Below, in pieces: positions 6,114 to 62,356 of a stretch of 64,000 bases of DNA. The notes under the pieces were generated by a model that was not told where the DNA came from, searched no databases, and worked only from the letters and a program-made list of their open reading frames with translations. Origin of the DNA: an uncultured Acidobacteriota bacterium (lineage in GTDB: Bacteria; Acidobacteriota; Terriglobia; UBA7540). The stretch lies in the NCBI GenBank assembly GCA_963832915.1, contig CAWHWE010000013.1, forward strand, positions 1,644 to 65,643. Reading direction: 5' to 3'. The translations under genes and the position numbers were made by a program. Within the stretch, counting starts at the first letter, position 1; the number at the start of each line of letters is the position of its first letter.

Positions 6114-6154
6114 TCAAGGTGGAATCAGAGGTTCCGCTAGGGGAAGAAGCCATC

Positions 6155-7324
6155 ATGGAAAGAACAGCAAACTGCAAGGCGAAGTTGGCGCGCATGAACA
6201 AGACGTTGCACCATCAGGAGGTGGATCGGGTCCCCATCAGCGACTTTTTTTGGGGCAGCTTTCTGGCGCGATGGCGTAAGGACCTTGGGCTTGCTCCCGA
6301 CACCGATGTTTATAAGTACTACGATCTCGATTGGGTGGTCACCATCCCCAACCTGGATCCTCACATCAAGCAGTTTGAAGTCCTCAAGGAAAATGAGGAA
6401 GAGGTGGTAGTCCGCACGGGGTTCGAAGCGGTGCTCCAAAAGCGCCTGGCTTATCCCATGCCAGCCTACCTCAGGTTCGATACCGATACGGTCGAAAAGA
6501 TGCAGGCGTTTCAATTCGATGATCCTTGGGATGAGCGGCGCTTCTTCAAAGCCGGTGACAACCAGATTGCAGGCGTCGGTGATGGTTTTGAGCGAAATTC
6601 TCCTGCCTGGATCGACAGTGTGAAGAAGAACTATCCGGATATCCCCGTTTACGGCAGCGTCTGCGAAGGCCAGGAGATGCTGTGGCGCATCCTCGGCACG
6701 GAACATGTGATGCTATGGATTGGGCTGCATCCTGAAGAAGTGGGAAAGTTTGTGGAGAGAATCAATCCCTTCTCCCTGGAACTCCTTAAGGCCCAAATCA
6801 GGGCAGCCGACGGCCTGCTGGACGGAATAGTCATCTGGGGAGACGTGGCCTACAAGCAAGGCCTTTTCTTCTCCCCCAACTATTGGCGCCAGTACTTCAA
6901 ACCCGGCGTGAAAGCCCTGGTGGAGGAATGCCACCTATGCGGGTTGCCGGTGATCTATCACGGCTGCGGAAATGTGCAGAGGATTTTCGAAGACTTTATC
7001 GAAGTGGGCGTGGACGCTTACAACCCGTTGGAGGCCAAGGCCGGTATGGACGTGGTCGAATTGCGGCGGAAATACGGCCACCGCATCGCGTTCTGTGGAA
7101 ACATGGATGTGATCCAGTGGGCGGAGGGAAGCCCGGAAGACCTGAAGCGGACCGTCCTGACCAAGTTGAACGCGGCCAAAGGCGGCGGGTACATCTTCCA
7201 GTCGGACCACTCCGTGCCCAGCAACGTGTCCGGACAGAACTACGACTACGTGGTCAAGCTGGTGCGTGAGTACGGGAAATACCCACTCCGCTTGGGGGAG
7301 TACGACCTTCCCGATTTAAAGTAG
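6155..7324 (+). CDS. Uroporphyrinogen decarboxylase (URO-D/MtaA-like) family protein, paralog 1
   Basis: N-terminal ...HHQEVDRVPISDFFW... (the x-x-DR-x-P signature of PF01208-type proteins); ~390 aa; start chosen at ATG 6155. Confidence 0.7.
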   Translation: MERTANCKAKLARMNKTLHHQEVDRVPISDFFWGSFLARWRKDLGLAPDTDVYKYYDLDWVVTIPNLDPHIKQFEVLKENEEEVVVRTGFEAVLQKRLAYPMPAYLRFDTDTVEKMQAFQFDDPWDERRFFKAGDNQIAGVGDGFERNSPAWIDSVKKNYPDIPVYGSVCEGQEMLWRILGTEHVMLWIGLHPEEVGKFVERINPFSLELLKAQIRAADGLLDGIVIWGDVAYKQGLFFSPNYWRQYFKPGVKALVEECHLCGLPVIYHGCGNVQRIFEDFIEVGVDAYNPLEAKAGMDVVELRRKYGHRIAFCGNMDVIQWAEGSPEDLKRTVLTKLNAAKGGGYIFQSDHSVPSNVSGQNYDYVVKLVREYGKYPLRLGEYDLPDLK

Positions 7325-7480
7325 TGGCGGAAGCGCTTTGGAGTGCGGTCCCGCGTGCGGGACCGCTCTTGTGCCGCGAGCTTGCTCGCGGTCATCTCGG
7401 CACGGAACGTCATCCAGGCCAGCAAGCTGGCCTGCAAGAAAGCGGCAGCAAGCTACCGCACTCCAAAGCTGGAGGTTTTT
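7325..7480. repeat. Structured intergenic element: outer stem GCGCTTTGGAGTGCGG/CCGCACTCCAAAGC enclosing three hairpins (GGTCCCGCGTGCGGGACC, CGCGAGCTTGCTCGCG, GGCCAGCAAGCTGGCC). It starts on the stop codon of the upstream gene.
   Basis: Palindromes read from the sequence. Confidence 0.6.
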
Positions 7481-8599
7481 ATGGATTCTAAAGAAAGACT
7501 CATGACGGCACTTCATAAGGGGAAGCCGGACCGGCTGCCGATTTCAGTCCACCAATGGCAGGCCTACCATCTCAAATACTTCCTGAATGGTATTTCGGCG
7601 CTGGAGGCCTTCCAGAAATTCGGCATGGATGCGCAGATCCAGTATTTCGGCGATGTGGGTCAAAGCGCCCTGGTTGATTATGATTTCACTAAATTCTCCA
7701 CTCCGGAATGGCACGATGAAGTTACCGCGGTCAGCAACGACCCCGACAACCGAATGGCCAATCATGCGATTCAAACCCCGGAGGGGATGCTGACCTATAA
7801 GACTCGTGGCGACCGGAAGACGACCTGGATCACCGAATACATGGTTAAACGCGATGAAGACATCGAGATCATTGACAAGTATTTGCCGGTGGGGAAACTG
7901 GATCTGGCCCCGGTGCAGACCCTCTACGATGAAGTCGGCGACAAGGGCATTCTGCGCGGGTTTGTTTGGGGAGACCAGGGCGGCTGCTGGCAACACGCCT
8001 GTTGCCTCATGGACGTCACCGAACTCATCATGCGCTGTATGGACAAACCGGACTGGGTTCATCGTTTGCTGACTATTCTTCTCCATAAGAAGCTCCGCTT
8101 CATCGAATCGATGAAAGGAGCCAAGTTTGACCTGGTTGAGACGGGCGGTGGAGCGGGTTCGTCCACGGTCATTTCTCCCAAATTGCACAGGGAGTTCTGC
8201 ACGCCTTACGACCGCAAAATGCATGACGCCCTGCACGACCTCGGATTCCTGGTGGCCTACCACACTTGCGGCGGGACGCGAGGAATCGAGGAATTGATTG
8301 TCGCCAATGGCGCGGACATTTCAGAGACGCTGGCCCCGACGAGCATTGGTGGAAATCAGGAACCCTGGGAATTCAAGCAAAAAGTGGGTAACAGGCTCGC
8401 CGTGATTGGCGGGCTTGACCAGTTCAACGTGCTCACCGCAGGGCCGGCCGAAAACATCCGGCAAACCGTGTGCACGCTCTTCGAGAAGGTCGGGCAGGAC
8501 GGAGGCTACGTCTGCTCGGTAAGCGATCACTTCTTCGATACGCCGGTCGAGCATCTCCAGGTGATGGCCGACGCGGCGAAAGAATGCGTCTATAACTGA
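7481..8599 (+). CDS. URO-D/MtaA-like family protein, paralog 2
   Basis: ...HKGKPDRLPISVHQW... signature; GGAGG RBS 8 nt upstream of ATG 7481. Confidence 0.7.
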   Translation: MDSKERLMTALHKGKPDRLPISVHQWQAYHLKYFLNGISALEAFQKFGMDAQIQYFGDVGQSALVDYDFTKFSTPEWHDEVTAVSNDPDNRMANHAIQTPEGMLTYKTRGDRKTTWITEYMVKRDEDIEIIDKYLPVGKLDLAPVQTLYDEVGDKGILRGFVWGDQGGCWQHACCLMDVTELIMRCMDKPDWVHRLLTILLHKKLRFIESMKGAKFDLVETGGGAGSSTVISPKLHREFCTPYDRKMHDALHDLGFLVAYHTCGGTRGIEELIVANGADISETLAPTSIGGNQEPWEFKQKVGNRLAVIGGLDQFNVLTAGPAENIRQTVCTLFEKVGQDGGYVCSVSDHFFDTPVEHLQVMADAAKECVYN

Positions 8600-8600
8600 T

Positions 8601-9710
8601 ATGACTATAAACTCAATAGAGATTCGTGTATGCCACAACACCCGCGCGGCCATGTCCGACTCGGAAATGCGCATGGGAGGAAGATCGACATTTGATTTCC
8701 TCGTCATTTCAATGAAGACCGACACGGGGATCGAGGCGAATTCCTTTGGATTTGCGGGACGCGGCGCCGGGATGGCCGGAGAGATTGCAGCCTCGGCGCT
8801 AAAGCCCTTCTTCCTGGGCAAAGACCCGCTGGCGCGGGAAAAACACTGGCAAGACTTCCGCACGTACGACCGCTGGTGGAACCACGTTCCGATTTATTCT
8901 TACGGCCCCTTTGACATCTGCCTTTACGACATCGCCGCCCAGATGGCGGGGCTGCCACTCTACAAACTGCTTGGCATGTACAGGGACAAGGCGCCCACCT
9001 ACGCGAGCTCCTTCGTGCTGCCGGCGCCCGAAGACTATGCCCGGCAGGCGCTGGAGGTTAAGAACAGGGGCTGGCACGCCTACAAGCTTCATCCCCCTGG
9101 AAAGGTTGACTTCGATCTGAGGGCGTACCGGGCCTGCCGGGAAGCTGTCGGCCCGGATTTCAAGCTGATGGCCGACCCGGTGGCGGCTTACTCCCACGAA
9201 GAGGCTTTGCGGGTGGGGCGCGAGCTCGAGCGGCTCAATTTCTATTGGTTGGAGGAACCCCTCTTCGACGTCGATTTCCACGGACTGCGAATGCTGACTG
9301 CCAAGCTGGACATCCCCATCATCGGCACCGAGGTGCTTGCCGGCTCGCACTACTCCACCGCGGACTGCATCGCCACGGGGGTGGTGGACATGGTCCGCAC
9401 TGATGTGTCCTGGAAGGGGGGTATTACGCCGGTCATGAAGACGGCCCACTTGGCGGAGTCCTTCGGGGTGAAGTGTGAGCTGCACACCGCCATCTACCAC
9501 CCGCTGGAAGTGGTGAACCTGCACTGCTGCTGCGCCATTTCCAACTCCGAGTTCTTCGAACTTTTGTACCCCCTCTCCTATATGGACTTTGGAATGAGAA
9601 GCCCATTGCAGATTGACGCCGAAGGCTACGCGCACCCTCCCGAGACGCCGGGGATCGGGGTTGAGTTCGATTGGAATTTTATCGACAACTGTACCATTAA
9701 GAAGCTGTAG
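8601..9710 (+). CDS. Enolase-superfamily (mandelate racemase/muconate lactonizing enzyme) sugar-acid dehydratase, candidate L-rhamnonate/L-fuconate dehydratase
   Basis: MR/MLE-type barrel segments (…KLHPPGKVDFDLRAYRACREAVGPDFKLMADP…EEPL…) and adjacency to rhaM. Confidence 0.7.
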   Translation: MTINSIEIRVCHNTRAAMSDSEMRMGGRSTFDFLVISMKTDTGIEANSFGFAGRGAGMAGEIAASALKPFFLGKDPLAREKHWQDFRTYDRWWNHVPIYSYGPFDICLYDIAAQMAGLPLYKLLGMYRDKAPTYASSFVLPAPEDYARQALEVKNRGWHAYKLHPPGKVDFDLRAYRACREAVGPDFKLMADPVAAYSHEEALRVGRELERLNFYWLEEPLFDVDFHGLRMLTAKLDIPIIGTEVLAGSHYSTADCIATGVVDMVRTDVSWKGGITPVMKTAHLAESFGVKCELHTAIYHPLEVVNLHCCCAISNSEFFELLYPLSYMDFGMRSPLQIDAEGYAHPPETPGIGVEFDWNFIDNCTIKKL

Positions 9711-9777
9711 CGGCGATTTTATATCGCCATAGCTCGTCCGTTCCCGACGCGGGGTGGCGGCGTAAAGCCGCCGCTAC
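9709..9777. repeat. Nested-hairpin element: TGTAGCGGCG [GGCGATtttataTCGCC] [GGCGGCgtaaaGCCGCC] CGCCGCTACA. It includes the TAG stop of the dehydratase gene.
   Basis: Palindromes read from the sequence. Confidence 0.6.
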
Positions 9778-9797
9778 AAGAAGGAGCCAACAAACTT

Positions 9798-10136
9798 ATG
9801 CAAGCGCCAAAGCTTAAGCGGTATGGACAGATCATCGGACTGAAACCGGGAGCCTACGATATGTACGTTGAGCACCATGCGAAGGTCTGGCCGGGAGTTT
9901 TAAAGACCATCTACGACTGCAACATTCGCAACTACTCAATATTCTACAAAGACAATACGCTCTTTGCTTATTTCGAATATATAGGCGACGCCTTCGAGGC
10001 TGACATGGCGAAGATGGCTGCGGACCCCACGACACAGGAATGGTGGGCTATCATGAAGCCGTTGCAGCAGCCGATCCCCACCCGCGCCGAAGGGGAATGG
10101 TGGGCCGATATGAAAGAGGTGTTCCACGTTGACTGA
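9798..10136 (+). CDS. rhaM: L-rhamnose mutarotase
   Basis: 112 aa; ...YVEHHAKVWPGVL...IRNYSIF... matches the RhaM/YiiL family. Confidence 0.8.
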   Translation: MQAPKLKRYGQIIGLKPGAYDMYVEHHAKVWPGVLKTIYDCNIRNYSIFYKDNTLFAYFEYIGDAFEADMAKMAADPTTQEWWAIMKPLQQPIPTRAEGEWWADMKEVFHVD

Positions 10137-10321
10137 GAGGGCCCAGCCGGGCCTCCGGTACTGACAACGGACTAAGAGAGCCGGATGTGCCGGCCCTCCC
10201 ACATAGACTCCCGCTGTCGCGTCGGCTGGATTGTGAATCGTCAACTCGATCCGCGTGGTGCGGCGGGGCTCGAGAGCGAAGGGAAAGTCCTCCAGCGGGT
10301 CGCGATCACCCCAATTAATGC

Positions 10322-11876
10322 TGTTGTGCCCCGATGATAATGTCCCCTTCTGTCACCGATAGAAATGTCCCCTAAACTCATGGCCTCTGAGGAGGCCACA
10401 GTGAAGAGGACGAGGATGGATGAGCGGGAGTTGAGGCGAGGGGCGGTGTTGTCACAGGTGGCGGGGAAGGGTTGGACTTTGGTGCAAGCTGCCGAGCGCA
10501 TGGGAGTGAGCTATCGGCAGGCGAGGCGATTGTGGAAGCGTTATCGAGTGAAGGGGACAAGGGGGCTGATGCATGGCAACGTGGGGCGGGCGTCGAACCA
10601 TGCCAAGCCGAAGAGTTTGCAGCGACGGGTCTTGGGGCTGATAGGGAAGAAGTACGGTGGAGAGCCCGGCGAGCGTTTCGGTCCCACGCTGGCGGCGGAG
10701 CACTTGGAGCAAGACGATCATGTCGCAATCGGGGTGGAGACGTTGCGGCAGTGGATGCTGGAGGCAGGATTATGGAGCCGGGAGCGGAGAGGGCGAGCGC
10801 ATCGGCGAAGGCGGGAGCGGAAAGCGCATTTTGGGGAGTTGGTGCAGTTGGATGGAAGTTTCCATGATTGGCTAGAAGGGCGAGGTCCGCGGGGTTGTCT
10901 GATGAACATGGTGGATGACGCGACGGGTACGACGCTGTGCCGGATGGGCAAGGAAGAGACGATCTGGGCGGCGGTGGGAGTGTTGGAGGCGTGGATGGAG
11001 TGCTACGGAGTGCCGCAGGCGTTGTACACGGACTGGAAGAACGTGTACGTGCGAGAGCCCAGCGCGCAGGAGCGGATGCGAGGAGAAGAGCCTGTGACGC
11101 AGTTCGGACGCATGTGCCGTCAATTGGGGATTGAGATCATCGCGGCCAGTTCGCCGCAGGCCAAGGGGCGGGTGGAGAGGAACCACGGGACGCATCAGGA
11201 CCGCCTGGTAAAGAAGCTTCGCGTACGAAACATAACGAGCCTAGAGGATGCCAATCGATACTTACAGGAGAAATACTGTGAGGAGCACAACACGCGTTTC
11301 GCGGTACGGCCGGCAGCCCCGCAGGACTTTCACTTGCCCAGCCCTGGGGTGCGGAAACTGGACAGCATTTTCCGGCTGGAGAGGGAGAGAGCGCTGAGCA
11401 ACGATTGGGTGGTACGCGATGAGAACCGCTTCTATCAGGTGGAGCGGCAGCGCCTGCATCACGCGCCAGCAAAGAGCAAGGTGAGGTTATGCGAGTGGGA
11501 GGATGGGAGGATCGAGATTCACTACCGAGGGCAGAAGCTCAGCTGGCAAGAGATCCCAGCACGCCCGCTCCCGAGAAAGCAAGAGGACGAACTTCCAGTG
11601 GCCATGGAGGCGACGAAGAAGAAGTGGAAACCAGGGCCGCACCATCCCTGGCGGATGGGCCCGTGGACTGACCGCACGCCGTTGGTCTCGGCCTCCGCTT
11701 CGCCCTAGACGCTCCGCCCTTCGGGCTCCGCAGGGCTTCGCTCCGGCCGAGACCAACGGCGTAACTCACCACTCCAGCAGAAACAAAGGGAGAGACAAAG
11801 TACGTGAAAGACAAAACCGAAAAAGAGGACATTTCTATTGGGTTAAGGATGGGGACATTTCTATCGGGGCTTGACA
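10322..11876 (+). mobile_element. ISNCY-family insertion sequence (~1555 bp). Its imperfect terminal inverted repeats are TGTTGTGCCCCGATGATAATGTCCCC... / ...GGGGACATTTCTATCGGGGCTTGACA. It is flanked by a 16-bp direct repeat TCACCCCAATTAATGC (10306-10321 and 11877-11892).
   Basis: IRs and direct repeats read from the sequence; the transposase lies inside. Confidence 0.7.
10365..11708 (+). CDS. ISNCY-family transposase (N-terminal HTH plus DDE integrase core)
   Basis: From memory, strong resemblance to proteins annotated 'ISNCY family transposase' (…VSYRQARRLWKRY…, …HRRRRERKAHFGELVQLDGSFHDWLEGRG…); internal start alternatives exist. Confidence 0.7.
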   Translation: MSPKLMASEEATVKRTRMDERELRRGAVLSQVAGKGWTLVQAAERMGVSYRQARRLWKRYRVKGTRGLMHGNVGRASNHAKPKSLQRRVLGLIGKKYGGEPGERFGPTLAAEHLEQDDHVAIGVETLRQWMLEAGLWSRERRGRAHRRRRERKAHFGELVQLDGSFHDWLEGRGPRGCLMNMVDDATGTTLCRMGKEETIWAAVGVLEAWMECYGVPQALYTDWKNVYVREPSAQERMRGEEPVTQFGRMCRQLGIEIIAASSPQAKGRVERNHGTHQDRLVKKLRVRNITSLEDANRYLQEKYCEEHNTRFAVRPAAPQDFHLPSPGVRKLDSIFRLERERALSNDWVVRDENRFYQVERQRLHHAPAKSKVRLCEWEDGRIEIHYRGQKLSWQEIPARPLPRKQEDELPVAMEATKKKWKPGPHHPWRMGPWTDRTPLVSASASP

Positions 11877-12229
11877 TCACCCCAATTAATGCTTGACGCA
11901 CCCCACTTTGTGAGCTAGGCTTTGCGCTTGATTTACGGTGTGCTGTACGGCAGGCGGGAGCAAAGGTAGTCCGAATGGTTGCTCCTCTATCTGACGAAGT
12001 CGATTTTAAACAGTTTGGGGATATCGTTATAGATCAACATTGCAGCATCGGTGACTGCGCGGTTGCGGTCCCTGGGTACGACATACGGATCTTACCTCCG
12101 TCCGGAATCACACAACTGTTCATCAACGAGTTAATAATGCGCGCGGCCGTCGCTGGATGAGCCAGCCGAGTTTTGTGGCGGCGTTTATACTCGCCATAGC
12201 AGTCATTCGGGTATCCGCCGGCAAGCACA

Positions 12230-13453
12230 ATGAAGAAAGGAGAATCTGCGGTGATTTCGATGCAAAAATCAAATTCAATACCTAAGTATTTATCGTTGTA
12301 TTGCTACATGTGGGATGTTCTTGACGAAGGGATTAATTCCTTCGCTCATTTGGTCAAGGATGCGGGATTGAATAACATCTCGATGGCATCAACCTATCAC
12401 GGGGGGAAGTCGCTTAACCCTCACAATCGGAAAAATCACGTATATTTTATCGAAGAGGGGGCAATCTACTTCAAACCTTCGGGTGGATTCTTTGATAAGA
12501 CAAAGATGAAGCCCAGAGTCAGCCGGCTCGTTGCCGAGCGTGATTACTGGAAAGACATCGTGACTGCTTGTGAGAAACGTGGAATAGGGACCACGGCCTG
12601 GAGTGTTTTTCTCCACAATTCGTATTTGGGAGCCACATATCCTGAGTGCACGACGCAAAACGTTTTCGGAGACCACTACCTCCACTCACTGTGTCCTTCA
12701 CAGCCGGCAGTCATGGATTATATGCGTGCCCTGGCTCAGAATCTCGCCGCATACCCCATACAGGCAGTAGAGTTCGAGTGTTTTGACTTCACTCCTTTTC
12801 ACCATTATTCTTTTCTGGAAAAGGAGGGGACGAAGCTGACGCCTTTCGCAGATCTCCTCATGTCCATCTGCTTTTGTCCGGCATGTTTGTTGCAGGCGAA
12901 GCAGCGGCACGTTAAAGGGGGAGCTGTTGCCAAACTAACCAAGGGTTGGATCGAACAATACTTTGATGGGAAACACCGGCAGGAGAGAGCGCTCGAATCC
13001 GAAATTGCCACTATCCCCGGCCTGGCAGAGTATCTCCAGATGCGCTTTGAGGTGCTGGCCAACTGCTTCGCCGAAGTTACTGGGACGCTGAAAGCTCATG
13101 ATAAAAGGGCAATCTATATTGTCATCGATCAAGAGCAGCGGCTGAATTACATGAGGGGGTTGGATTTGCTCCAGGTTGGGTCGCATATGGACGCCATCGA
13201 GGTGTTGTTCTACCACCGTAAGTTGGCCGATGCGCCTGGAATCGTACGGAAGATTCGCCGTGCTACCGGGAATATACCAGAGGTTTACTTTGCGGTGAGA
13301 CCAGGCTATCCCGACGCCGACCGAGCGAAGGAAGTCGTCCGCATGACAGACGCGGTCGTCAACGCGGGGGTGAACGGAATCTCCTATTACAACTTTGGTC
13401 TCCTGGAAAAGTTCCATATGAACTGGGTCAAGCAGGCTATCCGCGCCTTGTAG
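12230..13453 (+). CDS. Hypothetical protein in a low-GC (~43%) segment, probably horizontally acquired; family unrecognised, TIM-barrel-like hydrolase is a guess
   Basis: Clean 407-aa ORF; AT-rich codon usage, a sharp contrast to its neighbours; lies immediately 3' of the IS. Confidence 0.45.
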   Translation: MKKGESAVISMQKSNSIPKYLSLYCYMWDVLDEGINSFAHLVKDAGLNNISMASTYHGGKSLNPHNRKNHVYFIEEGAIYFKPSGGFFDKTKMKPRVSRLVAERDYWKDIVTACEKRGIGTTAWSVFLHNSYLGATYPECTTQNVFGDHYLHSLCPSQPAVMDYMRALAQNLAAYPIQAVEFECFDFTPFHHYSFLEKEGTKLTPFADLLMSICFCPACLLQAKQRHVKGGAVAKLTKGWIEQYFDGKHRQERALESEIATIPGLAEYLQMRFEVLANCFAEVTGTLKAHDKRAIYIVIDQEQRLNYMRGLDLLQVGSHMDAIEVLFYHRKLADAPGIVRKIRRATGNIPEVYFAVRPGYPDADRAKEVVRMTDAVVNAGVNGISYYNFGLLEKFHMNWVKQAIRAL

Positions 13454-13563
13454 GGCCCCGGACGAGGGTACTCACCACAGAGGCCACAGCGTCCGCAGAG
13501 TAGAGCTGAAAGAGTTTTCTCTGTGGTCTCTGTGCGCTCTGTGGTGAAGCTTTTCTTCGTCGC

Positions 13564-14568
13564 ATGAGATTCTTCCTTGGAGATGGCGTCATGAAACCTG
13601 CAGACTTTAATCCGGAAAAGTTCGATCGAGGTGGGAAATACACGCTTTACCTCGAATTGGGGCCGGCCGCCAGTAATATCGAATTGCCGGTTTTGCTGGT
13701 CCGTGGAAGTCGGCCGGGAAAAAGACTTGTGGTATCGGCAGCCGTGCACGGCGACGAATACGAAGGGGTCCGAACCATATATGATGTGTACCACGCACTC
13801 GACCCCGCGAACCTGAGCGGAGACTTCCTTTCCGTGCCCGTGTCAAACCCACCCGCATTCTGGAACGGCACCCGGTCGAGTCCGCTCGACGGCGGCAATC
13901 TCGCACGTGTTTTTCCCGGGAGTTTGGAAGCTGGCCCTACCGCCGCGATTGCGTATCATATGGCGGCTTCGATTATTGCGCATGCCGACCTGTATCTGGA
14001 TCTGCATAGTGCTGGAGTCAAGTTGCTGATGCCCACGATGATCGGTTATGACGCCGGGGATGTGCGTTCTCGGGACGCGGCGTATGCCTTCGGTGCAAAG
14101 GTCCTCTGGGGACATCCCGGAACTGCGCCGGGCCGCACCATAACGTTCGCGGCCCAAAAAAATATCCCTTGGCTGTACACTGAGGCGCATGGGGCGGGCC
14201 GCATCGACCCCGCAGATCTCGAAATATTTGTAGAGGGCGTTTTTAATCTGTTGCGTCATTTAAACATCATATCCGGCCCGCTTCGAACTAACCCGGTAGA
14301 GTGGCATCTATACGGCGCCGGGGACATTGATAAAGGTTTTGTGGCCAGTCAGCGCGGCTTCTTAGTGACATCGGCCACCTTATTCCAAAGGGTCCGCGCT
14401 GGGGACAGGCTGGGGTATCTTTGCGACCTACTAGGGAAAACGATTGAAACCTACCTCGCCCCAACCGACGGAGTAGTCGCGATGATCAGAGCGTTCCCGG
14501 CGGTCGAACCTGGCGAACCCTTGTTCTTATTAACTGACCTGCTGGGGGACAGCTCGCAAACGAGCTAA
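13564..14568 (+). CDS. Succinylglutamate desuccinylase/aspartoacylase (AstE/AspA) family Zn deacylase
   Basis: …SAAVHGDEYEG… (the HGxE zinc motif) and the fold size of the AstE/AspA family. Confidence 0.7.
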   Translation: MRFFLGDGVMKPADFNPEKFDRGGKYTLYLELGPAASNIELPVLLVRGSRPGKRLVVSAAVHGDEYEGVRTIYDVYHALDPANLSGDFLSVPVSNPPAFWNGTRSSPLDGGNLARVFPGSLEAGPTAAIAYHMAASIIAHADLYLDLHSAGVKLLMPTMIGYDAGDVRSRDAAYAFGAKVLWGHPGTAPGRTITFAAQKNIPWLYTEAHGAGRIDPADLEIFVEGVFNLLRHLNIISGPLRTNPVEWHLYGAGDIDKGFVASQRGFLVTSATLFQRVRAGDRLGYLCDLLGKTIETYLAPTDGVVAMIRAFPAVEPGEPLFLLTDLLGDSSQTS

Positions 14569-14649
14569 ACAACAAGCTCCGGGCGCCGATGTCAAAGTAG
14601 ACGCGCCAGCGAGTTTGGAAAACGCGGGTCAGAAACTGAAGGAGTAGCT

Positions 14650-15999: not shown

Positions 16000-16014
16000 A
16001 GAAGGAATAAAACG

Positions 16015-17043: not shown

Positions 17044-17204
17044 GCCAGCAGTGAAGAAACAGCCCTCTCCCTTGGGGCAGATCTTTACCCATATCGCTTG
17101 CTGGACACCGGGGGTGGGTGCATTCAGCCCCCGGAGAGAGGGTGTTCCGATGCCGGCGTTTTCACCAGCCCGTCAGCCGACGGGGACGGGTGAGACCCAA
17201 TTCC

Positions 17205-18677: not shown

Positions 18678-18884
18678 TTTTTTCACTAGCGAGACTCCCT
18701 TCCAGCAGTAGTTTGTAGTACCTTCGCGGCGCTCGAAGATTTCTCCGTGTGCTCCGTGGCCAAAAGAACCTAACACAGAGATCACTGAGACCCTCCGTGC
18801 TCTCTGTGTTTACGCTTTCCAGGCTCGGAGAACACGGAGAATTGCCTTTTGGTTGCGACCGCGGGCCGCGCTATAGAGTAATGC

Positions 18885-20198
18885 TCAATTCGATCGCCTA
18901 AGCCCATCACAAGCCTTACGCACTGCTGCCAGAGTAACGCCAACGTCAGCTTCAGTATGCACGGCTGAGACGTACCATCGGCCGTCGGGCAACAAATAAA
19001 TCCCTTCCCCGAGCATCCCTTCAATGAATTGGTCCCGCATTCCATCGTCCCGGTTCAGGGTCTCGCGATAGTTGCTCATCTTCTTGGCAGCAGTGAAGCT
19101 GATATGGAATGCAGCCCCGACTCCGTTGATCAAGGCGGGGATGCCTGCTTCAGCCAGAGCAGCTTCAATGCCCTTCTTGAGGTATTCACCCGTTTGTTGG
19201 GTGCGTATTAAAGCGGAGCCACCATCGGCAGACAGAACCTCCAGCGCCGCCTCGGAGGCTGCAAGAGCCAGCGGGTTGCCATTGAAAGTGCCTGCCTGCA
19301 CCACGCGGCCCTTGGGAATCAGTTCCATAATCTCCCTTTTTCCCGCCACCACGCTCAACGGGTAACCAGCGGCGACGGCCTTTCCGAAGGTGGCCAGATC
19401 AGGTGTCACGTTGAAGAGACCCTGTGCTCCTTTTGGATGCACGCGAAATCCTGTTATGACCTCGTCAAAAATCAGAACGATTCCGTACCGCGTCGCCAGC
19501 TCCCGCAAGCTTTCGAGAAAGCCGGGGGAAGGCATCAGGCAGCTACTATTACAAAGGATCGGCTCGGTGATAATCGCGGCAATCTCCTGATAATGTTCAC
19601 GGAGAGTATTTTCAAGTTCTTTAAGGTCATTCCACGGCAGGATGTAAACATCGTCGAGCACGCGCTCGCTCTGCCCCTCGGTGCCCATCTGCTTTGCGTT
19701 GGTTCCGTCTTCTGCCACCTTCGGGTGATAATTTATGAGGATGTTATCGAACCAGCCGTGATAATGGCCCTCGAACTTAATGAACTTCCGCCTCCCCGTA
19801 TGCGCCTTTGCCAGGCGCAAGGCCAGGTGGACTGCTTCCGAGCCCGTGCTGTTAAAGGCCACAAGCTGCGCGCAAGGGACCATTTCACATATCTTGCGCG
19901 CGACGGCGGTTTCCAAGCGATGTTGCGCGCCGATCAGGCAGAACTTCTCGAGCTGGCGCCGGACGGCGGCGATTACTGCGGGATGACTGTGCCCAAGCAT
20001 GAGCGGCCCCCAGGCAAGTCCGTAGTCCAAGTACTGGTTGCCATCCACGTCAACAATTCGGTTCCCCGAAGCGGATTCAAAGAACAGAGGAACCGGCTTG
20101 CAGGCGGCGCGGAGCATGCTGCTGACCCCACCGGCGAGGTAGCGCTTTGACTCGTTAAACATCTCAGCCGAACAGGCATAAGTTCTCATATCAGTCAC
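18885..20198 (-). CDS. Class-III (aspartate aminotransferase family) PLP aminotransferase, glutamate-1-semialdehyde aminomutase-like
   Basis: …LIFDEVITGFR… and …TFGKAVAAGYP… (PLP-lysine region) are class-III hallmarks. Confidence 0.8.
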   Translation of the reverse strand: MTDMRTYACSAEMFNESKRYLAGGVSSMLRAACKPVPLFFESASGNRIVDVDGNQYLDYGLAWGPLMLGHSHPAVIAAVRRQLEKFCLIGAQHRLETAVARKICEMVPCAQLVAFNSTGSEAVHLALRLAKAHTGRRKFIKFEGHYHGWFDNILINYHPKVAEDGTNAKQMGTEGQSERVLDDVYILPWNDLKELENTLREHYQEIAAIITEPILCNSSCLMPSPGFLESLRELATRYGIVLIFDEVITGFRVHPKGAQGLFNVTPDLATFGKAVAAGYPLSVVAGKREIMELIPKGRVVQAGTFNGNPLALAASEAALEVLSADGGSALIRTQQTGEYLKKGIEAALAEAGIPALINGVGAAFHISFTAAKKMSNYRETLNRDDGMRDQFIEGMLGEGIYLLPDGRWYVSAVHTEADVGVTLAAVRKACDGLRRSN

Positions 20199-20595
20199 CC
20201 CCTATAAAGGTCGAACCCCTTGATGACCAAGCTTCGGTATAATCTTCTTACCTGCGAGCAGCCATCAGTATGAATCTAAGCCCTGAGAAAATCTCCGTGT
20301 TCAGGATCTGGTCGTGGTTTCGAATCCCCAGGTTCACGGTTTGCTCAAAACGGCTCAGCAATCATTCCATGGGGGGCGCGCTCGGCAGACCACGGTCGAA
20401 TCTCAGGCGGAGGGTCTTCCAGAGTAAAATGGGCGTTCTTTTTTATAGTCCGCCGCGAACACCACCGATGTCAAGCTTTTTACTAGTTGTCGATTGTGGT
20501 AGCATCTGCTTCCTGACGGGGCGCGTGTCCGAGGGCCTGTGGGCGTTTTTGTGCTTCGGTCCTGGTCGAAATTCAGAGGGAGTGCTCAGATCAAG

Positions 20596-21660
20596 ATGAC
20601 TTCCAGAGAAAGAGTGATGGCTGCCTTCCAACACGAAGAACCCGACCGCGTGCCAGCGTGGTGCGGGTCGTCGATTGAGTTTTGGGAAAAGGCTAAGCGG
20701 ACCTCCGGGCTTCACGACGAAGGACTACGTCTGCGCTTCGGTGATGACTTTCGCCGGGTTTTTCCCGTCTATGCCGGGCCCCAGTTTACCCTGTCCCCTG
20801 GCGCGACTTCCCGAACCCCCTTCGGCATCGAGCGCGAGGGTCTCGGTTACGGGCAACCCAAAAGTCATCCGTTATCCAGCGCCGCTCTGGCGGAAGTTCA
20901 CGCCTATCCCTGGCCCGAGCCGCGGTGGATGGATGTTTCTCACATCCGTGCCGAAGCGGACAAGTACCAAAGGCAGTACGCAATTCTGGGTGGGGATTGG
21001 TCACCCTTCTTCCACGACGCCGTAGACATGCTGGGCATGGATGTTCTGTTCCTTAAAATGTACGACGAACCGGAAGTTGTGGATGCGGTCGTGCAGCACA
21101 TCATGGATTATTATGTGGGCGTCAGCCAGCGAATTTTCGATGCCGCTGCCTCAGCCATCGACATTTTCTTTATTGGAAACGATTTCGGAACTCAGCGGGG
21201 CCCTCTGATGAGCCCGAGTCTCTTCCGGCGGTTCATCCTGCCTCACCTCAAGCGACTGGCTCGCCTGGGCCATGAATATGGATTGAAAGTCATGATGCAT
21301 TGTTGCGGTGGGTACGCTCCTCTCATCCCCCAGATGATCGAGGCTGGACTGGATGGCCTGCATGCGGTCCAGCCGTCTTGTGATGGGATGGATCTGGCGA
21401 CGCTGAAGCGTTCCTTCGGTGACAAGATCCTCTTCAATGGCGGGATCGACTCTCACCATGTGCTGATCCGGGGAACACCCGAGTTCGTCCGCGAAGAAGC
21501 GAGAAAAGTTCTCGACATCATGAAACCGGGTGGAGGCTATGTGGCAGGCGCCAGCCACGACTGGATTCTCGAGGAGACGCCCGTGGAGAACGTTCTGGCC
21601 ATGTTTGACGCGATCTGTGAATTCGGCAGCTACAACTCTGGCGATTCTCGATCGCGTTGA
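20596..21660 (+). CDS. URO-D/MtaA-like family protein, paralog 3
   Basis: …FQHEEPDRVPAW… signature; start chosen at ATG 20596. Confidence 0.7.
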   Translation: MTSRERVMAAFQHEEPDRVPAWCGSSIEFWEKAKRTSGLHDEGLRLRFGDDFRRVFPVYAGPQFTLSPGATSRTPFGIEREGLGYGQPKSHPLSSAALAEVHAYPWPEPRWMDVSHIRAEADKYQRQYAILGGDWSPFFHDAVDMLGMDVLFLKMYDEPEVVDAVVQHIMDYYVGVSQRIFDAAASAIDIFFIGNDFGTQRGPLMSPSLFRRFILPHLKRLARLGHEYGLKVMMHCCGGYAPLIPQMIEAGLDGLHAVQPSCDGMDLATLKRSFGDKILFNGGIDSHHVLIRGTPEFVREEARKVLDIMKPGGGYVAGASHDWILEETPVENVLAMFDAICEFGSYNSGDSRSR

Positions 21661-21739
21661 CCTCTCGAATACGATGAAGATGAAAACCCCTGGGCAACTA
21701 CAGCAAATATTCCGGGGGTTCGTTGTTAGGAGGCAATTG

Positions 21740-22600
21740 ATGTCTGGTTTCCGAGGCCGATCCACTAACCGACGCCTGTTGTTGCTCCTTGGGGCTCTCG
21801 CAGTATTCTTATTCCAAACCACTATATTCGTTTCCTTCTTAGTGGGCAGCGCGCCGGGAAGCATCCACTTGGTTCTTCGGACTCGCGTACAGCCATTCAA
21901 GGGGAGCGGCCAGTGGGTGGAGGTCAACTTCGTCGAGAATCTCCCGCCTAAGGAAACGGCGATTGTAATCTGCGACATGTGGGATAAGCATTGGTGCAAG
22001 GGCGCTACAGGACGAGTGGATGCGCTCGCCCATCGTATGTCACCACTCCTGAAATTGGCTAGAGCGCGGGGCGTGCAGATCGTCCACGCCCCCTCAGACG
22101 TCATGGATTTCTATAAGGATTATCCCCAAAGGCGTCTGATGCAGAGCTTGGCAAAGGTTCAGCCACCGCAGGCCCTCGATCTTTCGGATCCGCCGCTGCC
22201 GATTGATGATTCCGACCGCGGATGCGATACGCCGGGAGATAAGGAGCACCAGGCCTGGAGCCGCCAGCATCCTGCAATTGATATTGAGCCTCAGGACGTA
22301 ATTTCCGACGATGGAAACGAAGTCTATAGCTTTTTGCATGAACGAGGCATCCAATACTTGTTCATAATGGGGGTGCACGCCAACATGTGCGTCTTGGGGC
22401 GATCCTTTGCGATCAGGCAGATGACGCGTTGGGGCATCCACTGCATCTTGGTCCGGGATCTCACGGATGCCATGTATAACCCCGCAATGAAGCCCTATGT
22501 CTCGCACGGGCAAGGTACGCAACTGGTGATTGAGCACATTGAGAAGTACTGGTGCCCATCAATTCTGAGTGCGGACCTGCAAACGGGCCTGAAACCGTAA
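21740..22600 (+). CDS. Isochorismatase-like cysteine hydrolase with an N-terminal membrane anchor
   Basis: …IVICDMWDKHWC… and …MGVHANMCVLGRS… resemble the isochorismatase-family catalytic D/K/C pattern; AGGAGG RBS 6 nt before ATG 21740. Confidence 0.55.
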   Translation: MSGFRGRSTNRRLLLLLGALAVFLFQTTIFVSFLVGSAPGSIHLVLRTRVQPFKGSGQWVEVNFVENLPPKETAIVICDMWDKHWCKGATGRVDALAHRMSPLLKLARARGVQIVHAPSDVMDFYKDYPQRRLMQSLAKVQPPQALDLSDPPLPIDDSDRGCDTPGDKEHQAWSRQHPAIDIEPQDVISDDGNEVYSFLHERGIQYLFIMGVHANMCVLGRSFAIRQMTRWGIHCILVRDLTDAMYNPAMKPYVSHGQGTQLVIEHIEKYWCPSILSADLQTGLKP

Positions 22601-22665
22601 GGGCTGGCGAGAGGAATCGGTCAGATTTCCAGACGAATTGCTAGACACACAAGGGGAGGCGCAAA

Positions 22666-24015
22666 ATGGCAATCAACAGAAGGCGATTTTTGGAAAGGAG
22701 TATTCAGGGAGGATTCGGTGTCGCGGCAGGCGTGTACGGATTACAAGCGGCATCGAAAGCGGCTGCTGCGAGCGACAAGGTTGTCGTGGGGGTGATGGGA
22801 GTGGGAGGCCGAGGGACTTTCCTGACGCAATTGTTCGCCTCCAGGCCGGACGTTGAAATTGCCTACATCTGCGATGTGGATAGCCGGAAGTTCCCGCACG
22901 CAGTAAAGCTTGTGGAAGACATCAAGGGAAGAACCCCCAAGACAGTTGGAAATTTCCAACGCATCCTCGAGGACAAGAATGTTGATGCGATGGTTTGCGC
23001 CACGCCTGACCATTGGCATGCTATGGCCACCGTCCTCGCCTGTCAAGCAGGTAAGGACGTTTACGTCGAAAAACCGGCTTCCCATAACATCTGGGAAGGC
23101 CGGAAGATGGTGGAGGCAGCGCGCAAGTACACGCGAGTGGTACAGGTCGGGATGCAAAATCGGAGCAGCACATCTGGCAAGAGTGCGCGCGAGATGATTC
23201 AGTCCGGAAAGCTGGGTAGTATTCATCTTGTGCGTGTCTACAACATGTTAAACCGGGAGCCTGTGGAGAGAACGCCAAACGCCGCAGCGCCGGAAGGATT
23301 TGATTGGAACATGTGGGTGGGTCCCGGACCACTGGTCCCCTATGACCCCATGTATTTCAAGAGGGTTTTCTGGGATTTTAACGGAGGGCTCATGACTGAC
23401 GATGGAGTTCATCAATTGGACTTGGCTCGCATGGTTATGGGCCTGTCCTATCCCAAGTCCGTTCACCATGCGGGCGGAAAGCTCTTCTTTAATGACATCT
23501 CGGAAACCCCCGACACGACGATTGTGACCTATGAGTATGACAAGCTGCGGCTGGTATTCGAACAGACCGTTTGGACTCCTTATATGAAGAAGACTCCCGA
23601 CAGTATAAGGGAAAGTCTGACCCAGTTTCCCGATTGGTTCCCCTTCAACGCGACCAGAATAGAAATATTCGGACGCAAGGGCCTGATGCTTCTGGGGCGA
23701 CAAGGAGGAGGATGGCAGCTCTACAACGAGGAAGGGAGCGTGATTGCGACGGGCAAGCAGAGGCACTCGGAAATGCAGGCGGGACATGTGGAGAACTTTA
23801 TAAGTTGTATCCATAGCCGGAAGCACCCCAATGCCGACATCGAGGAGGGCCACACTTCCGCCGCGCTATGCCACATGGCAAATATCTCCTATCGGTTGGG
23901 GGACCGAAAGCTGGAATTCGACAGTTCCAAAGAGGCCTTTGTAGATAATAAGGAAGCAAACCATTACTTGAAGCGGTCTTATCGCAATCCCTGGGTGATA
24001 CCCGAGAGCGTGTAG
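22666..24015 (+). CDS. Gfo/Idh/MocA-family oxidoreductase, TAT-exported
   Basis: Twin-arginine signal MAINRRRFLE; Rossmann VGVMGVGGRG; EKP motif VYVEKPASHN. Confidence 0.85.
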   Translation: MAINRRRFLERSIQGGFGVAAGVYGLQAASKAAAASDKVVVGVMGVGGRGTFLTQLFASRPDVEIAYICDVDSRKFPHAVKLVEDIKGRTPKTVGNFQRILEDKNVDAMVCATPDHWHAMATVLACQAGKDVYVEKPASHNIWEGRKMVEAARKYTRVVQVGMQNRSSTSGKSAREMIQSGKLGSIHLVRVYNMLNREPVERTPNAAAPEGFDWNMWVGPGPLVPYDPMYFKRVFWDFNGGLMTDDGVHQLDLARMVMGLSYPKSVHHAGGKLFFNDISETPDTTIVTYEYDKLRLVFEQTVWTPYMKKTPDSIRESLTQFPDWFPFNATRIEIFGRKGLMLLGRQGGGWQLYNEEGSVIATGKQRHSEMQAGHVENFISCIHSRKHPNADIEEGHTSAALCHMANISYRLGDRKLEFDSSKEAFVDNKEANHYLKRSYRNPWVIPESV

Positions 24016-24125
24016 TCTCGGAAAAGGACGAGACCGGAAAGTGCATCGCTTGTGGTTTCGGATCGAGAGGCAACAGGCGCCCTTCTCTCTCGGCACCAAA
24101 CCTGGTAGTGGGTCAGTTTGGTGTT

Positions 24126-24212
24126 GTAGCGGCGATCCCGCAAGGCCGGATCGCCAAATGGCGGCGTCCCGATGAGATCGGGACAGGTTCCGCCGCCTCT
24201 ACATCAAACTGA
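24126..24212. repeat. Nested-hairpin element: ~30-bp outer stem GTAGTGGGTCAGTTTGGTG...CATCAAACTGACCCACTAC around GTAGCGGCG [GGCGATCCgcaaggccGGATCGCC] [GTCCCGATgagATCGGGAC] CGCCGCCTCTAC
   Basis: Palindromes read from the sequence. Confidence 0.6.
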
Positions 24213-24257
24213 CCCACTACTCAAAACTTGAAACCAAAAACAACCACTCGAGGTTTT

Positions 24258-25298: not shown

Positions 25299-25409
25299 CG
25301 CGGGGGTTGCTTGGTTATATCGGCCCATCTGATCCCTGCTGGCCGTGCAAGTGACCCCTCACCCGGCCCGCGTCCCGATGAAGTGCATCGGGATCGCGGG
25401 CCACCCTCT

Positions 25410-25520
25410 CCCCTTGGGAGTCTGTGTGATAACTCGATATTTCGCCCTTTTCCACAATGCAAGTGACTGATTCTCCGTTGGCGAAAACGCGAAATCAGAG
25501 GTTGTCACACAGACTCCTTG
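25410..25520 (+). promoter_or_regulatory. Long imperfect stem-loop in the 5' leader of URO-D paralog 4 (GGAGTCTGTGTGATAAC ... GTTGTCACACAGACTCC, 17-bp arms ~60 nt apart): candidate attenuator or riboswitch-like leader
   Basis: Inverted repeat read from the sequence; function inferred. Confidence 0.3.
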
Positions 25521-25597
25521 GGAGAGGTCAAAACCCAATTCCCTTCCGCCATTGCGGAGAAATCCCGGCTAGCTTCTTCACATCGGAAGGAGATGAA

Positions 25598-26731
25598 ATG
25601 ATGACTCACCGAGAGCGAATTTTAGCAGCCCTGAAGCACAAGGAGCCAGATCGGGTTCCTCTTGACCTGGGCGCTACGGGAGCCACCACGATATCGGTCA
25701 AGGCCCATGAGCGATTACGGGCCCACCTTGGCCTCCCGTCGGAGCCGCCACCCGCTGTGTTCTCCACCCGCTCCACGACGGTGGTTCCTGACGAAGCTAT
25801 CCTGCGTCGTTTTGACGTCGACGCCCGCCCCCTTTCACTTGGAAATCCAACGGACCGGCCAGAGCGTAAGCTTTCCGAGGATACGTTGTTGGACGAGTGG
25901 GGAGTAACCTGGACAAGGCCTGGTGGCACCCATTACATAAACTCCGACGGCCCTTTCTGCCATCTTGCAGACCCTGCCCTTCAGGACCTCGAGAAGGCCG
26001 ATTGGCCCGACCCGGCAGACGCAGGCCGCTTTGAGGGGCTTCGAGATCGAGCCCGGAGACTGCACAAAGAGACGGATTACGCCGTGATCTTAAACCTCGG
26101 CATAGGCCCCGTCCATGAGTGCCAGTATGTTCGCGGCTATGCGACGTGGCTCGAGGATCTCTTGCTCCGCCCCGTCTTCTCCGAAGCCCTCCTCGACCGG
26201 GTCACCGACATCATGATTCAGATGGCGAATTGCGCCTTGGAAGAGGCGGGCGCGTACGTTGATTTGGTCATGTATGGCGACGATATCGCCACCCAGAATG
26301 CTACCCTGCTCCGACCGGAATTGTATCGGCGGATGATTAAGCCCCGGCATAAGGGGATAGCCAACGCCATAAAGCGTCACGGGAAGCCGATTGTTTTCCA
26401 CTCCTGCGGTTCTGTTTACGCCCTTATCCCAGACCTGATTGAGGTGGGAATCGATGCCCTGAACCCCGTCCAGGTTTCAGCGGCAAATATGGCTACGGAG
26501 CGCCTTAAGCAGGAGTATGGACGTGAATTGGCTTTTTGGGGAGGAATCGACACGCATCGAGTGCTGCCCACCGGAACGCCTGCGGAAGTGCGCGAAGAAG
26601 TGAAGCGCCGCATCGACGATTTGCACGACAATGGCGGTTACGTCCTTTGTGCCGTGCACAACATCCAGCCCGAGGTTCCCCCGGAGAACATCGTGGCGAT
26701 GTATGACGCTGCCCTTGAGTACGGGCGCTAA
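25598..26731 (+). CDS. URO-D/MtaA-like family protein, paralog 4
   Basis: …[13 protein letters not shown]… signature; AAGGAG RBS 6 nt before ATG 25598. Confidence 0.7.
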
Positions 26732-61985: not shown

Positions 61986-62356
61986 GCGAGAGCTGTTAGA
62001 GTCCTGTAACTGAAGTTCGTTGCATAAATGCCGTACTCTGAGAACGGCTCTACAGCCCCGATAGGGGCGGTAGAACTTAGCCCACGGCGTGAGCCTTGGG
62101 TAGGCGAGCCCTCCCTCACCCCCATCCCCTCTCCCGCCCGCGCGGGAGAGGGGTGCGGAAGGCGGGGAGTGGGTCGTCTTTCCCAGGGCTTGCGCCCTGG
62201 GCTACAATCTTCCGCCCCTGTCGGGGCTGGGAAGCGAATCCCTCGCCGGGCAGACTTCATGAATGAACTTACATTACACGACACTAGAGGATACGAATCC
62301 CTTTTTCGACCTTGGCTTTTCCACTTTCTAATTTCCAGTTTCCGAGCGGGCGGGCG

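Follow-up and report, generated by a model that had tools for sequence, protein, structure and literature searches.

Four divergent URO-D superfamily genes in a deoxyhexose-associated region of an uncultured Acidobacteriota bacterium: candidate corrinoid-type methyltransferases for O-methylated sugars

A 64,000-nucleotide stretch of contig CAWHWE010000013.1 from an uncultured Acidobacteriota bacterium (hereafter the window) encodes four proteins of the uroporphyrinogen decarboxylase (URO-D) superfamily, all on the + strand. The open reading frames (ORFs) are called, in that order, UROD1 (6155–7324, 389 aa), UROD2 (7481–8599, 372 aa), UROD3 (20596–21660, 354 aa) and UROD4 (25598–26731, 377 aa). 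A first-pass annotation of the sequence had described them as strongly diverged URO-D/MtaA-family paralogs, two of them in tandem, and this description stands: all four score above the 23.9-bit gathering score of the Pfam URO-D model PF01208 (76.3, 74.7, 106.9 and 116.1 bits for UROD1 to UROD4; E-values from 3e-21 to 2e-33), so the assignment survives an HMM search. UROD1 and UROD2 form the tandem, with a gap of 156 bp, and pairwise identity among the four proteins is 20–26%. The N-terminal signature x-x-(E/K)-x-DR-(V/L)-P is found in each of them (HHQEVDRVP, HKGKPDRLP, QHEEPDRVP and KHKEPDRVP, respectively). The length range of ≈370–390 aa given earlier fits UROD1, UROD2 and UROD4, while UROD3 falls below it.

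Every paralog represents a separate orthologous group that is widely conserved, with 60–79% identity across phyla. The UROD1 group comprises more than 120 clusters at ≥74% identity, nearly all of 389 aa and one of them from a Chloroflexi metagenome-assembled genome (MAG), and orthologues with 61–63% identity are encoded by a Treponemataceae MAG and by an assembled chromosome of 7.2 Mb. For UROD3 there are more than 120 clusters at ≥71% identity, from Planctomycetota, Sedimentisphaerales and Sumerlaeota. UROD4 likewise has more than 120 clusters, at ≥60%, and its relatives at 40–48% identity come from Planctomycetota, Verrucomicrobiota, Chloroflexota, Caldatribacterium, Desulfobacterota, Bathyarchaeia and Methanomassiliicoccales. 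UROD2 represents a smaller family (80 representatives at E ≤ 1e-30), and the other three queries each returned more than 5,500 homologues. The window comes from a Terriglobia-like Acidobacteriota genome, and the best named relatives are 76–81% identical. Cultured carriers, or relatives of carriers, include Victivallis vadensis, Desulfofustis glycolicus DSM 9705 and Sedimentisphaerales/Phycisphaerae isolates. A tblastn search of PLSDB plasmids with UROD1 gave distant matches only (24–27% identity), and an exact-sequence lookup of UROD4 found no match on record. Because orthologues in other phyla are far closer to each gene than the four are to one another, we regard them as ancient paralogs and reject a recent local duplication. 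Orthologues with 90–95% identity over 98–100% of the length (UROD1, UROD3 and UROD4) or with 93–96% identity (UROD2) indicate that all four genes are intact and that none is a pseudogene.

Databases label homologues of these proteins "uroporphyrinogen decarboxylase". One copy might thus be the true haem-pathway HemE with the others as decaying duplicates, or the URO-D assignment might be spurious. The paralogs do share the HemE fold (HemE structures are the top Foldseek matches of the UROD1 model, TM 0.62–0.70), and all four carry a His that aligns with the one conserved in HemE within its C-terminal GHG motif. On the hemE equivalog model TIGR01464, in contrast, UROD1, UROD3 and UROD4 reach only 23.5, 26.8 and 30.2 bits, about one tenth of the 302.95-bit cutoff, and UROD2 gives no match to this model. 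The PF01208 alignments begin at profile positions ≈95–152 and run to 346, covering the C-terminal two thirds only, so the N-terminal substrate-binding third of HemE is not recognisable in the paralogs. When the positions of human HemE Arg37, Arg41, Asp86 and Tyr164 were checked, this third was accordingly unalignable, and a low-confidence alignment set a Tyr of UROD4 opposite the HemE Tyr. HemE, for its part, lacks the H-x-C motif of the paralogs. Where HemE is expected as a single copy in a haem context, we found four copies and no haem gene among the ORFs given a domain scan (window positions 1–49.5 kb); the genes at 40–47 kb are housekeeping genes such as those for IF-2, NusA and TruB. Each paralog has full-length orthologues (60–95% identity) in many lineages, which argues against decay, and E-values down to 2e-33 make the family assignment robust. 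By these measures none of the four is HemE, and we reject the HemE and pseudogene readings, whose probability we put close to nil.

The top NCBIfam models for all four proteins are those of MtaA/CmuA and of the methylcobalamin:coenzyme M methyltransferase subfamilies. MtaA (PDB 4ay7) is also the best PDB sequence match of UROD3 (E 2e-7; 33.6 bits) and UROD4 (E 7e-9), and the chloromethane methyltransferase CdmB (9rui) is matched by UROD3 alone, with an E-value of 3e-4 (22.9 bits). In the HMMER alignment to 4ay7 the N-terminal D-R-V/L-P of the paralogs aligns with GEPVDKVP of MtaA. The AlphaFold2 model of UROD1 (pLDDT 86.6, pTM 0.89) has the URO-D fold; its Foldseek matches after HemE are MtaA (TM 0.58–0.70) and then MetE.

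The likeness to MtaA extends to its zinc site. An H-x-C-G motif (HGCG in UROD1, HTCG in UROD2, HCCG in UROD3 and HSCG in UROD4) overlies the zinc-binding His-x-Cys of MtaA. In the UROD3 and UROD4 alignments the His of a C-terminal GG(Y)…H segment, the same His that aligns with HemE, falls exactly on the Cys that is the third zinc ligand of MtaA; it lies in the contexts SDH in UROD2, SHD in UROD3 and VHN in UROD4. In a 34-sequence alignment of all four families the triad is invariant (H269, C271 and H352 in UROD1 numbering), as are R13, D24, R25, D223 and R245. The triad is kept in 120 of 120 UROD1 homologues, 119–120 of 120 for UROD3 and 115–118 of 119 for UROD4, including members that adjoin genes for corrinoid proteins. 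Compared with the His-Cys-Cys ligands of MtaA, the His and the first Cys are thus retained while an invariant His replaces the second Cys, and the metal site is predicted to be His-Cys-His, similar to that of MtaA but not identical. S-methyltransferases of the superfamily use His-Cys-Cys, while in O-methyltransferases one or both Cys are replaced (PMC10418091), so that His-Cys-His would be a distinct and harder site.

The neighbourhoods of these genes in other genomes point to sugars. In the window a RhaM-like mutarotase-family gene (9798–10136, +) matches PF05336 over its full length (114.6 bits). Our UROD1 neighbourhood sample was made up of annotated contigs and of 80 metagenome loci retrieved with UROD1; compared homologue loci are labelled L and a number. 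In 39 of 85 loci a RhaM-family gene lies no more than 3 kb from UROD1, and where the flanks reach 8 kb or more the two genes occur together in 21 of 43 loci. The RhaM-family gene mostly lies directly upstream of UROD1, and the orthologues there are 56–78% identical to the RhaM of the window. UROD1, UROD2-like and UROD3 genes and RhaM recur together in Chloroflexota-like, Planctomycetota and Spirochaetota contigs. The order [UROD2-like]-UROD3-RhaM-UROD1 is seen in L096, L099, L100, L103, L105, L108, L111 and L142, and the same module genes occur in other orders in L076, L079 and L167. The UROD3 orthologues of UROD3-RhaM-UROD1 modules are 59–67% identical, and orthologues of UROD2 adjoin UROD1 and RhaM in L088–L094, L142 and L155. 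Among ten UROD3 loci with long flanks, nine contain RhaM and eight have at least three URO-D genes. Since the same orthologous groups recur together in unrelated lineages, their co-occurrence in the window is functional and not due to chance.

GH29 α-L-fucosidases lie near the module in nine loci, and also in L079, L166, L167 and L168, and GH95, GH78 and GH63-like genes were found in a single operon with RhaM, UROD1 and an SDR gene. Further neighbours include GH141-like genes, polysaccharide deacetylases, LacI regulators, ABC sugar transporters with their solute-binding proteins (SBP) and RhaT-type symporters. RhaT-like genes directly precede UROD4-type genes in Planctomycetota and Verrucomicrobiota and flank UROD3 in L166; the window has a RhaT-family sugar:proton symporter of its own (16015–17043, +; PF06379; 226 bits on the NCBIfam RhaT model with its cutoff of 369). 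By gene content, the region to which the four genes belong is one for utilisation of deoxyhexose glycans of the L-rhamnose/L-fucose type. The sugar-derived acids suggested as substrates by the first-pass annotation are therefore only half right: the context is one of sugar utilisation, but RhaM-like, RhaT, GH29, GH95 and GH78 genes indicate 6-deoxyhexoses and glycans and not acids specifically. The RhaM-like protein of the window reaches 47.1 bits on the YiiL_rotase equivalog model TIGR02625, with a cutoff of 99.6, and the range is 47–50 bits when the partner in L084 (9664–9987) is included. The sugar specificity of this partner may therefore differ from that of L-rhamnose mutarotase.

Several other features of UROD1 loci were seen. 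In L169 (10001–14711) the stop codon of the UROD1 gene (77% identity) lies within the start of a sulfatase gene, followed by a gene for a 728-aa protein with weak similarity to the heparin/heparan-sulfate lyase HepB. A creatininase-family gene stands directly downstream of UROD1 in many loci, namely L111 (9070–9849), L099, L108, L110, L114, L116, L118, L140, L155, L159 and L171; its NCBIfam matches, creatininase and the 3-dehydro-scyllo-inosose hydrolase IolN, are both below cutoff. A 745-aa call in L171 (6691–8928) joins a LacI-family and a URO-D domain, and is probably a merged call or frameshift and not a true fusion.

Links to corrinoid chemistry were found among the homologues, clearest for UROD4. 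In L008 (73% identity to UROD4) the region 7383–13834 encodes the activase RACo, a corrinoid protein (CoP), the UROD4 orthologue, another URO-D protein, a homocysteine S-methyltransferase (PF02574) and a DUF1638 protein, and the operon resembles a MetH-like methionine synthase in split form, supplied by some methyl donor. L006 and L007 are similar in carrying CoP. In L033, from Desulfofustis glycolicus DSM 9705, a URO-D protein with the His-Cys-His triad (42% identity to UROD4) is encoded with CoP and a Pterin_bind protein. This is the canonical bacterial order of a first methyltransferase (MT1), corrinoid protein and second methyltransferase (MT2), with URO-D at the MT1 position. CoP lies within 3 kb of UROD4-type genes in 12 of 68 loci, and CoP–URO-D pairs are present in L026 (Bathyarchaeia) and L073 (Methanomassiliicoccales). 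The MT1 described from Bathyarchaeia is an unrelated protein of ≈300 aa (PMC10989822).

Corrinoid proteins are also embedded in the RhaM-URO-D modules. L111 has, in order, genes for LacI, a URO-D protein of 412 aa, CoP (B12-binding_2 and B12-binding domains), UROD3 (63%), RhaM and UROD1 (76%), and continues with a creatininase-like gene, an SBP, two permeases and a URO-D protein of 362 aa; the CoP gene overlaps the UROD3 orthologue. CoP genes are likewise found inside the module operons of L113 and L099, and in L079 about 12 kb away. The MtaA-type N-terminal motif, the H-x-C zinc motif, the best NCBIfam and PDB matches (to MtaA for three of the four proteins) and the orthologues in corrinoid operons together favour methyl transfer over decarboxylation. 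Of the uncharacterised decarboxylase or methyl-/acyl-transferase activity proposed in the first-pass annotation, an uncharacterised methyl transfer is thus favoured, decarboxylation is unsupported and acyl transfer is without any support. The accompanying remark that this fold has almost no assigned chemistry is roughly correct, but leaves out O-, S- and halide-demethylases, MetE and epoxyalkane:coenzyme M transferase (PMC10418091, PMC13222342).

We consider the best explanation to be that UROD1–4 are metal-dependent proteins of the cytoplasm that belong, within the URO-D superfamily, to its corrinoid-methyltransferase branch. Going further, we propose tentatively, and with slightly less than even confidence, that they are corrinoid-dependent methyltransferases that demethylate O-methylated deoxyhexoses. 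Glycoside hydrolases would free decorated 6-deoxyhexoses, which would be imported via RhaT-type or ABC transporters, and the RhaM-like mutarotase would bring the anomers to equilibrium. Zinc bound by the His-Cys-His site of the URO-D paralogs would then polarise the O-methyl ether of the sugar, and the methyl group would pass to Co(I) of a CoP, with the URO-D proteins in the MT1 role, and from there to tetrahydrofolate or homocysteine through an MT2. The demethylated free sugar would enter ordinary catabolism. The several paralogs might differ in the methylated sugar or the methyl position that they serve, or one paralog might be the MT2. Zinc-assisted, corrinoid-dependent methyl transfer is best supported in the case of UROD4 and UROD3, and has the least support for UROD1 and UROD2; for the latter two, as for the source organism in general, we infer corrinoid dependence, and likewise the identity of the substrate. 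A search of an accessible literature library found no paper linking the URO-D family or corrinoid demethylation to rhamnose, rhamnose mutarotase, fucose, fucosidase, fucoidan or methylated sugars.

A number of observations weigh against this proposal. No CoP, activase or MT2 was found in the 64-kb window, nor any cobalamin riboswitch in an Rfam scan of it. Of the 43 UROD1 loci with flanks of 8 kb or more, just 4 contain CoP, and it is absent from seven Pfam-annotated UROD1 contexts (L083, L084, L085, L167, L169, L170 and L171). The best MtaA/CmuA-type scores (UROD1 43.5, UROD2 69.9, UROD3 86.9 and UROD4 88.2 bits) are far below the cutoffs of 235–244 bits (TIGR01463/NF004889), and for UROD1 both the nearest PDB sequence match, a weak one, and the top fold match are HemE. 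His-Cys-His sites also occur in hydrolases and isomerases, and we know of no characterised precedent, apart from methanol, for Co(I) cleavage of an aliphatic sugar methyl ether. Some neighbours, finally, suit a non-phosphorylative route for rhamnose or fucose: an SDR of the glucose-1-dehydrogenase type, MR_MLE and a hydrolase of the FAH family.

Such CoP-poor loci and neighbours make a lactonase, or another new metal-dependent step, a serious rival for UROD1–3. These would then be corrinoid-independent metalloenzymes for an unassigned step of L-rhamnose/L-fucose catabolism, acting on the free sugar or lactone as an L-rhamnono-/L-fucono-lactonase, an isomerase or epimerase, or a decarboxylase, with chemistry new to the URO-D fold. 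RhaM directly upstream of UROD1 in about half of the loci is what such an enzyme would lead one to expect, and in L084, L085 and L170 RhaM comes first, then UROD1 and, directly after it, an SDR scoring above the cutoff of the glucose 1-dehydrogenase subfamily. In L083 the gene adjoining UROD1 is of the FAH family, with 2,4-didehydro-3-deoxy-L-rhamnonate hydrolase as its best match, and in the window UROD2 abuts a gene for an MR_MLE enolase-superfamily protein resembling acid-sugar dehydratases (8601–9710, +; PF13378, PF02746). The clusters have no canonical lactonase gene, CoP is missing from most loci, and the structures closest to UROD1 are those of HemE. Yet the dehydrogenase, dehydratase and hydrolase neighbours vary by locus, with decoration-removing sulfatase and deacetylase genes also appearing, and enzymes of that kind and transporters are the remaining constant companions; L084 has RhaA nearby, making an isomerase redundant there; a single pathway step would hardly call for the three to five URO-D paralogs found in an operon; CoP genes are embedded in three such operons; and no hydrolase or isomerase is known in the superfamily, for which just decarboxylases and alkyl or methyl transfer are listed (PMC10418091). 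On balance we judge this rival unlikely, and we rate as somewhat more doubtful still a reading in which UROD1, with UROD3 and the RhaM-like protein, is a non-corrinoid His-Cys-His metalloenzyme carrying out a new reaction on free sugars of the L-rhamnose/L-fucose type, for example hydrolysis of a lactone, isomerisation or cleavage of an ether without a cofactor.

The proteins may instead be corrinoid methyltransferases for non-sugar methyl donors or acceptors, for instance methoxylated aromatics from lignin or peat, methanol, methylated thiols or selenides, or methylamines, with the sugar genes adjacent by chance or through island formation. The characterised MT1s of the URO-D family demethylate aryl ethers or methyl halides, and the substrates of SCMTs and Mlps are thiols or selenide (PMC13222342, PMC10418091). 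Sugar genes are absent from the operons of L008 and L033, CoP–URO-D pairs occur in L026 and L073, and UROD4 is set apart from RhaM in the window, where it adjoins a zinc alcohol-dehydrogenase-family gene (26746–27744, +; ADH_N, ADH_zinc_N; TIGR02822 381 bits, cutoff 283.5). Against this stand the association of UROD1–3 with RhaM, GH29/GH95/GH78, LacI and sugar ABC or RhaT genes across phyla and within single operons, and the position of UROD4-type genes directly after RhaT-like transporters. The aryl/halide MT1 CdmB is less similar than MtaA, and the predicted site is His-Cys-His, not the His-Cys-Cys of S/Se-methyltransferases (PMC10418091). We consider a non-sugar role improbable.

Compared with MtaA, MtbA and MtsA (TIGR01463), the paralogs have the same URO-D TIM-barrel, the N-terminal D-(R/K)-V-P and the H-x-C-G zinc motif on the same strand, but they score far below the family cutoffs, have His in place of Cys as third zinc ligand, and belong to a bacterium without coenzyme M metabolism and to a sugar-utilisation context with no CoP in the window. 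The three-component MT1s (MtvB, OdmB, VdmB, MtoB and CdmB) are substrate:corrinoid methyltransferases of the URO-D fold that work with CoP, MT2 and an activating enzyme and, like the system described here, have many paralogs (PMC13222342). Their architecture is seen for the homologues in L033 and L008 but not in the window, and L008 differs in having a homocysteine S-methyltransferase in place of the pterin-binding MT2. In the UROD1 model the first strands are followed by an insertion, a feature also described for CdmB (PMC13222342). The known substrates of these MT1s are, on the other hand, aryl methyl ethers and methyl halides and not sugars, the similarity of our proteins to them is weaker than to MtaA, and CdmB has no metal site while the others have carboxylates (PMC13222342).

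The nearest described concept is that of the S/Se-linked multi-Mlp clusters of Firmicutes (PMC10418091). Corrinoid methyltransferase systems typically have multi-paralog clusters, and the type 1 mlp clusters of Kountz and Balskus contain several divergent MtaA-like paralogs, each in its own orthologous clade, spread over many lineages with no fixed synteny (PMC10418091). Unlike our genes, they always include CoP and the activase RACE, have His-Cys-Cys sites and links to sulfur or selenium genes, and are restricted to obligate anaerobes, mostly Firmicutes (PMC10418091). The window in contrast has no CoP or RACE, a predicted His-Cys-His site, an Acidobacteriota host and a context of deoxyhexose glycans, with CoP mostly not adjacent in related loci. 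A functional parallel may be found in a cytochrome P450 of marine Bacteroidetes, which, reportedly in work by Reisky et al. from 2018, demethylates 6-O-methyl-D-galactose. That enzyme also strips a methyl ether from a polysaccharide-derived sugar and is encoded in a glycan-utilisation locus, but it has an unrelated fold and uses oxygen-dependent oxidation, whereas the system proposed here would rely on oxygen-independent methyl transfer.

Methyl-ether sugars include the 2-O-methyl-fucose and 2-O-methyl-xylose of rhamnogalacturonan II and the 3-O-methyl-rhamnose of mosses and algae. Methylated deoxyhexoses are also found in bacterial and cyanobacterial polysaccharides, and the methyl ethers block ordinary catabolism. 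To our knowledge, the oxygen-dependent P450 for 6-O-methyl-galactose is the sole enzyme known to remove such ethers. If the corrinoid route is true, it would explain how anaerobes of sediment, peat and gut use methylated sugars, provide a sugar-derived methyl source for C1 and methionine metabolism, and give a function to thousands of genes labelled "uroporphyrinogen decarboxylase". A corrinoid-independent role would in turn mean new chemistry for the URO-D fold and close a gap in the rhamnose and fucose pathways. The non-corrinoid metalloenzyme reading of UROD1 would give the fold its first chemistry beyond decarboxylation or alkyl transfer, and would supply a missing, widespread deoxyhexose step. 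Under either leading reading, these genes are wrongly labelled as haem enzymes by automatic annotation.

Part of the window is a variable block, bounded on the left by a MaoC-like dehydratase gene (5601–6113, +; PF01575). With this gene begins a co-directional run of MaoC, UROD1, UROD2, MR_MLE and RhaM. After the run comes a transposase-like ORF whose only domains are of the HTH type (10365–11708, +; HTH_29, HTH_28, HTH_23 and LZ_Tnp_IS481), itself within the block. The MR_MLE gene starts 2 bp past the UROD2 stop, and its best NCBIfam match is L-talarate/galactarate dehydratase (136 bits, cutoff 500). UROD3 sits 10 kb beyond this run. In the related MAGs L003 and L005 the 16.5-kb block 6114–22665 with UROD1–3 is absent and MaoC adjoins a GFO/IDH/MocA oxidoreductase gene, so the block is lineage-specific; UROD4 is the sole one of the four paralogs in those MAGs. 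All four genes are in the window, as the first-pass annotation had it, but its cluster of four is partly a lineage-specific juxtaposition. MaoC followed by UROD1, as in the window, is seen in L086–L088 and L092, and the closest relatives L086–L094 (90–98% identity) have at least four gene orders, e.g., UROD1-RhaM-ZnADH and UROD3-ZnADH. The MR_MLE gene also varies among close relatives, being present in L092 and absent in L088.

To the right of the block, UROD4 is part of a cassette that is common to the Acidobacteriota MAGs L002–L005 and consists of the GFO/IDH/MocA oxidoreductase gene (22666–24015, +), a gene for a xylose-isomerase-like TIM-barrel protein (AP_endonuc_2, PF01261; 24228–25298, +), UROD4 and the zinc alcohol-dehydrogenase gene. 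The latter begins 15 bp downstream of UROD4, and elsewhere follows RhaM or UROD3 (L090, L091 and L094). The oxidoreductase, which was assigned from its Pfam matches, has a twin-arginine signal (N-terminus NRRRFLERS) and is therefore predicted to be periplasmic; the AP_endonuc_2 protein has a twin-arginine signal as well (N-terminus SSRRKFLRSVAGAGA). The pair suggests periplasmic oxidative cleavage of glycosides. Among NCBIfam models, the oxidoreductase scores best on that of the glycoside 3-dehydrogenase BT_2158 family (139 bits, cutoff 750). Promoter and terminator scans of the window performed no better than on shuffled sequences and gave no operon boundaries.

Between the transposase-like ORF and UROD3 lies a sub-block (12230–20198) of genes that look unrelated to one another, coding for an unknown 407-aa protein, an AstE/AspA (DoeB-like) deacylase, a ceramidase-like protein, RhaT, an M81/MlrC peptidase and a class-III aminotransferase. 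At 12–14 kb the GC content drops to 0.52, compared with 0.54–0.62 in all other 2-kb segments. An ORF at 20270–20599 (109 aa), which overlaps the start of UROD3 and occupies the spot of the CoP gene in L111, was considered as a degraded CoP gene and rejected, as it has no Pfam match and no similarity to CoP; it is probably not a gene. A second gene of the mobile-element type, an IS630-type DDE_3 transposase, is found at 33406–34494 (−). Two copies of the Acido-Lenti-1 sRNA motif (RF01687) are present on opposite strands about 80 nt apart, at 62054–62100 (−) and 62182–62228 (+), and score 42.9 and 46.1 bits with a gathering score of 37.

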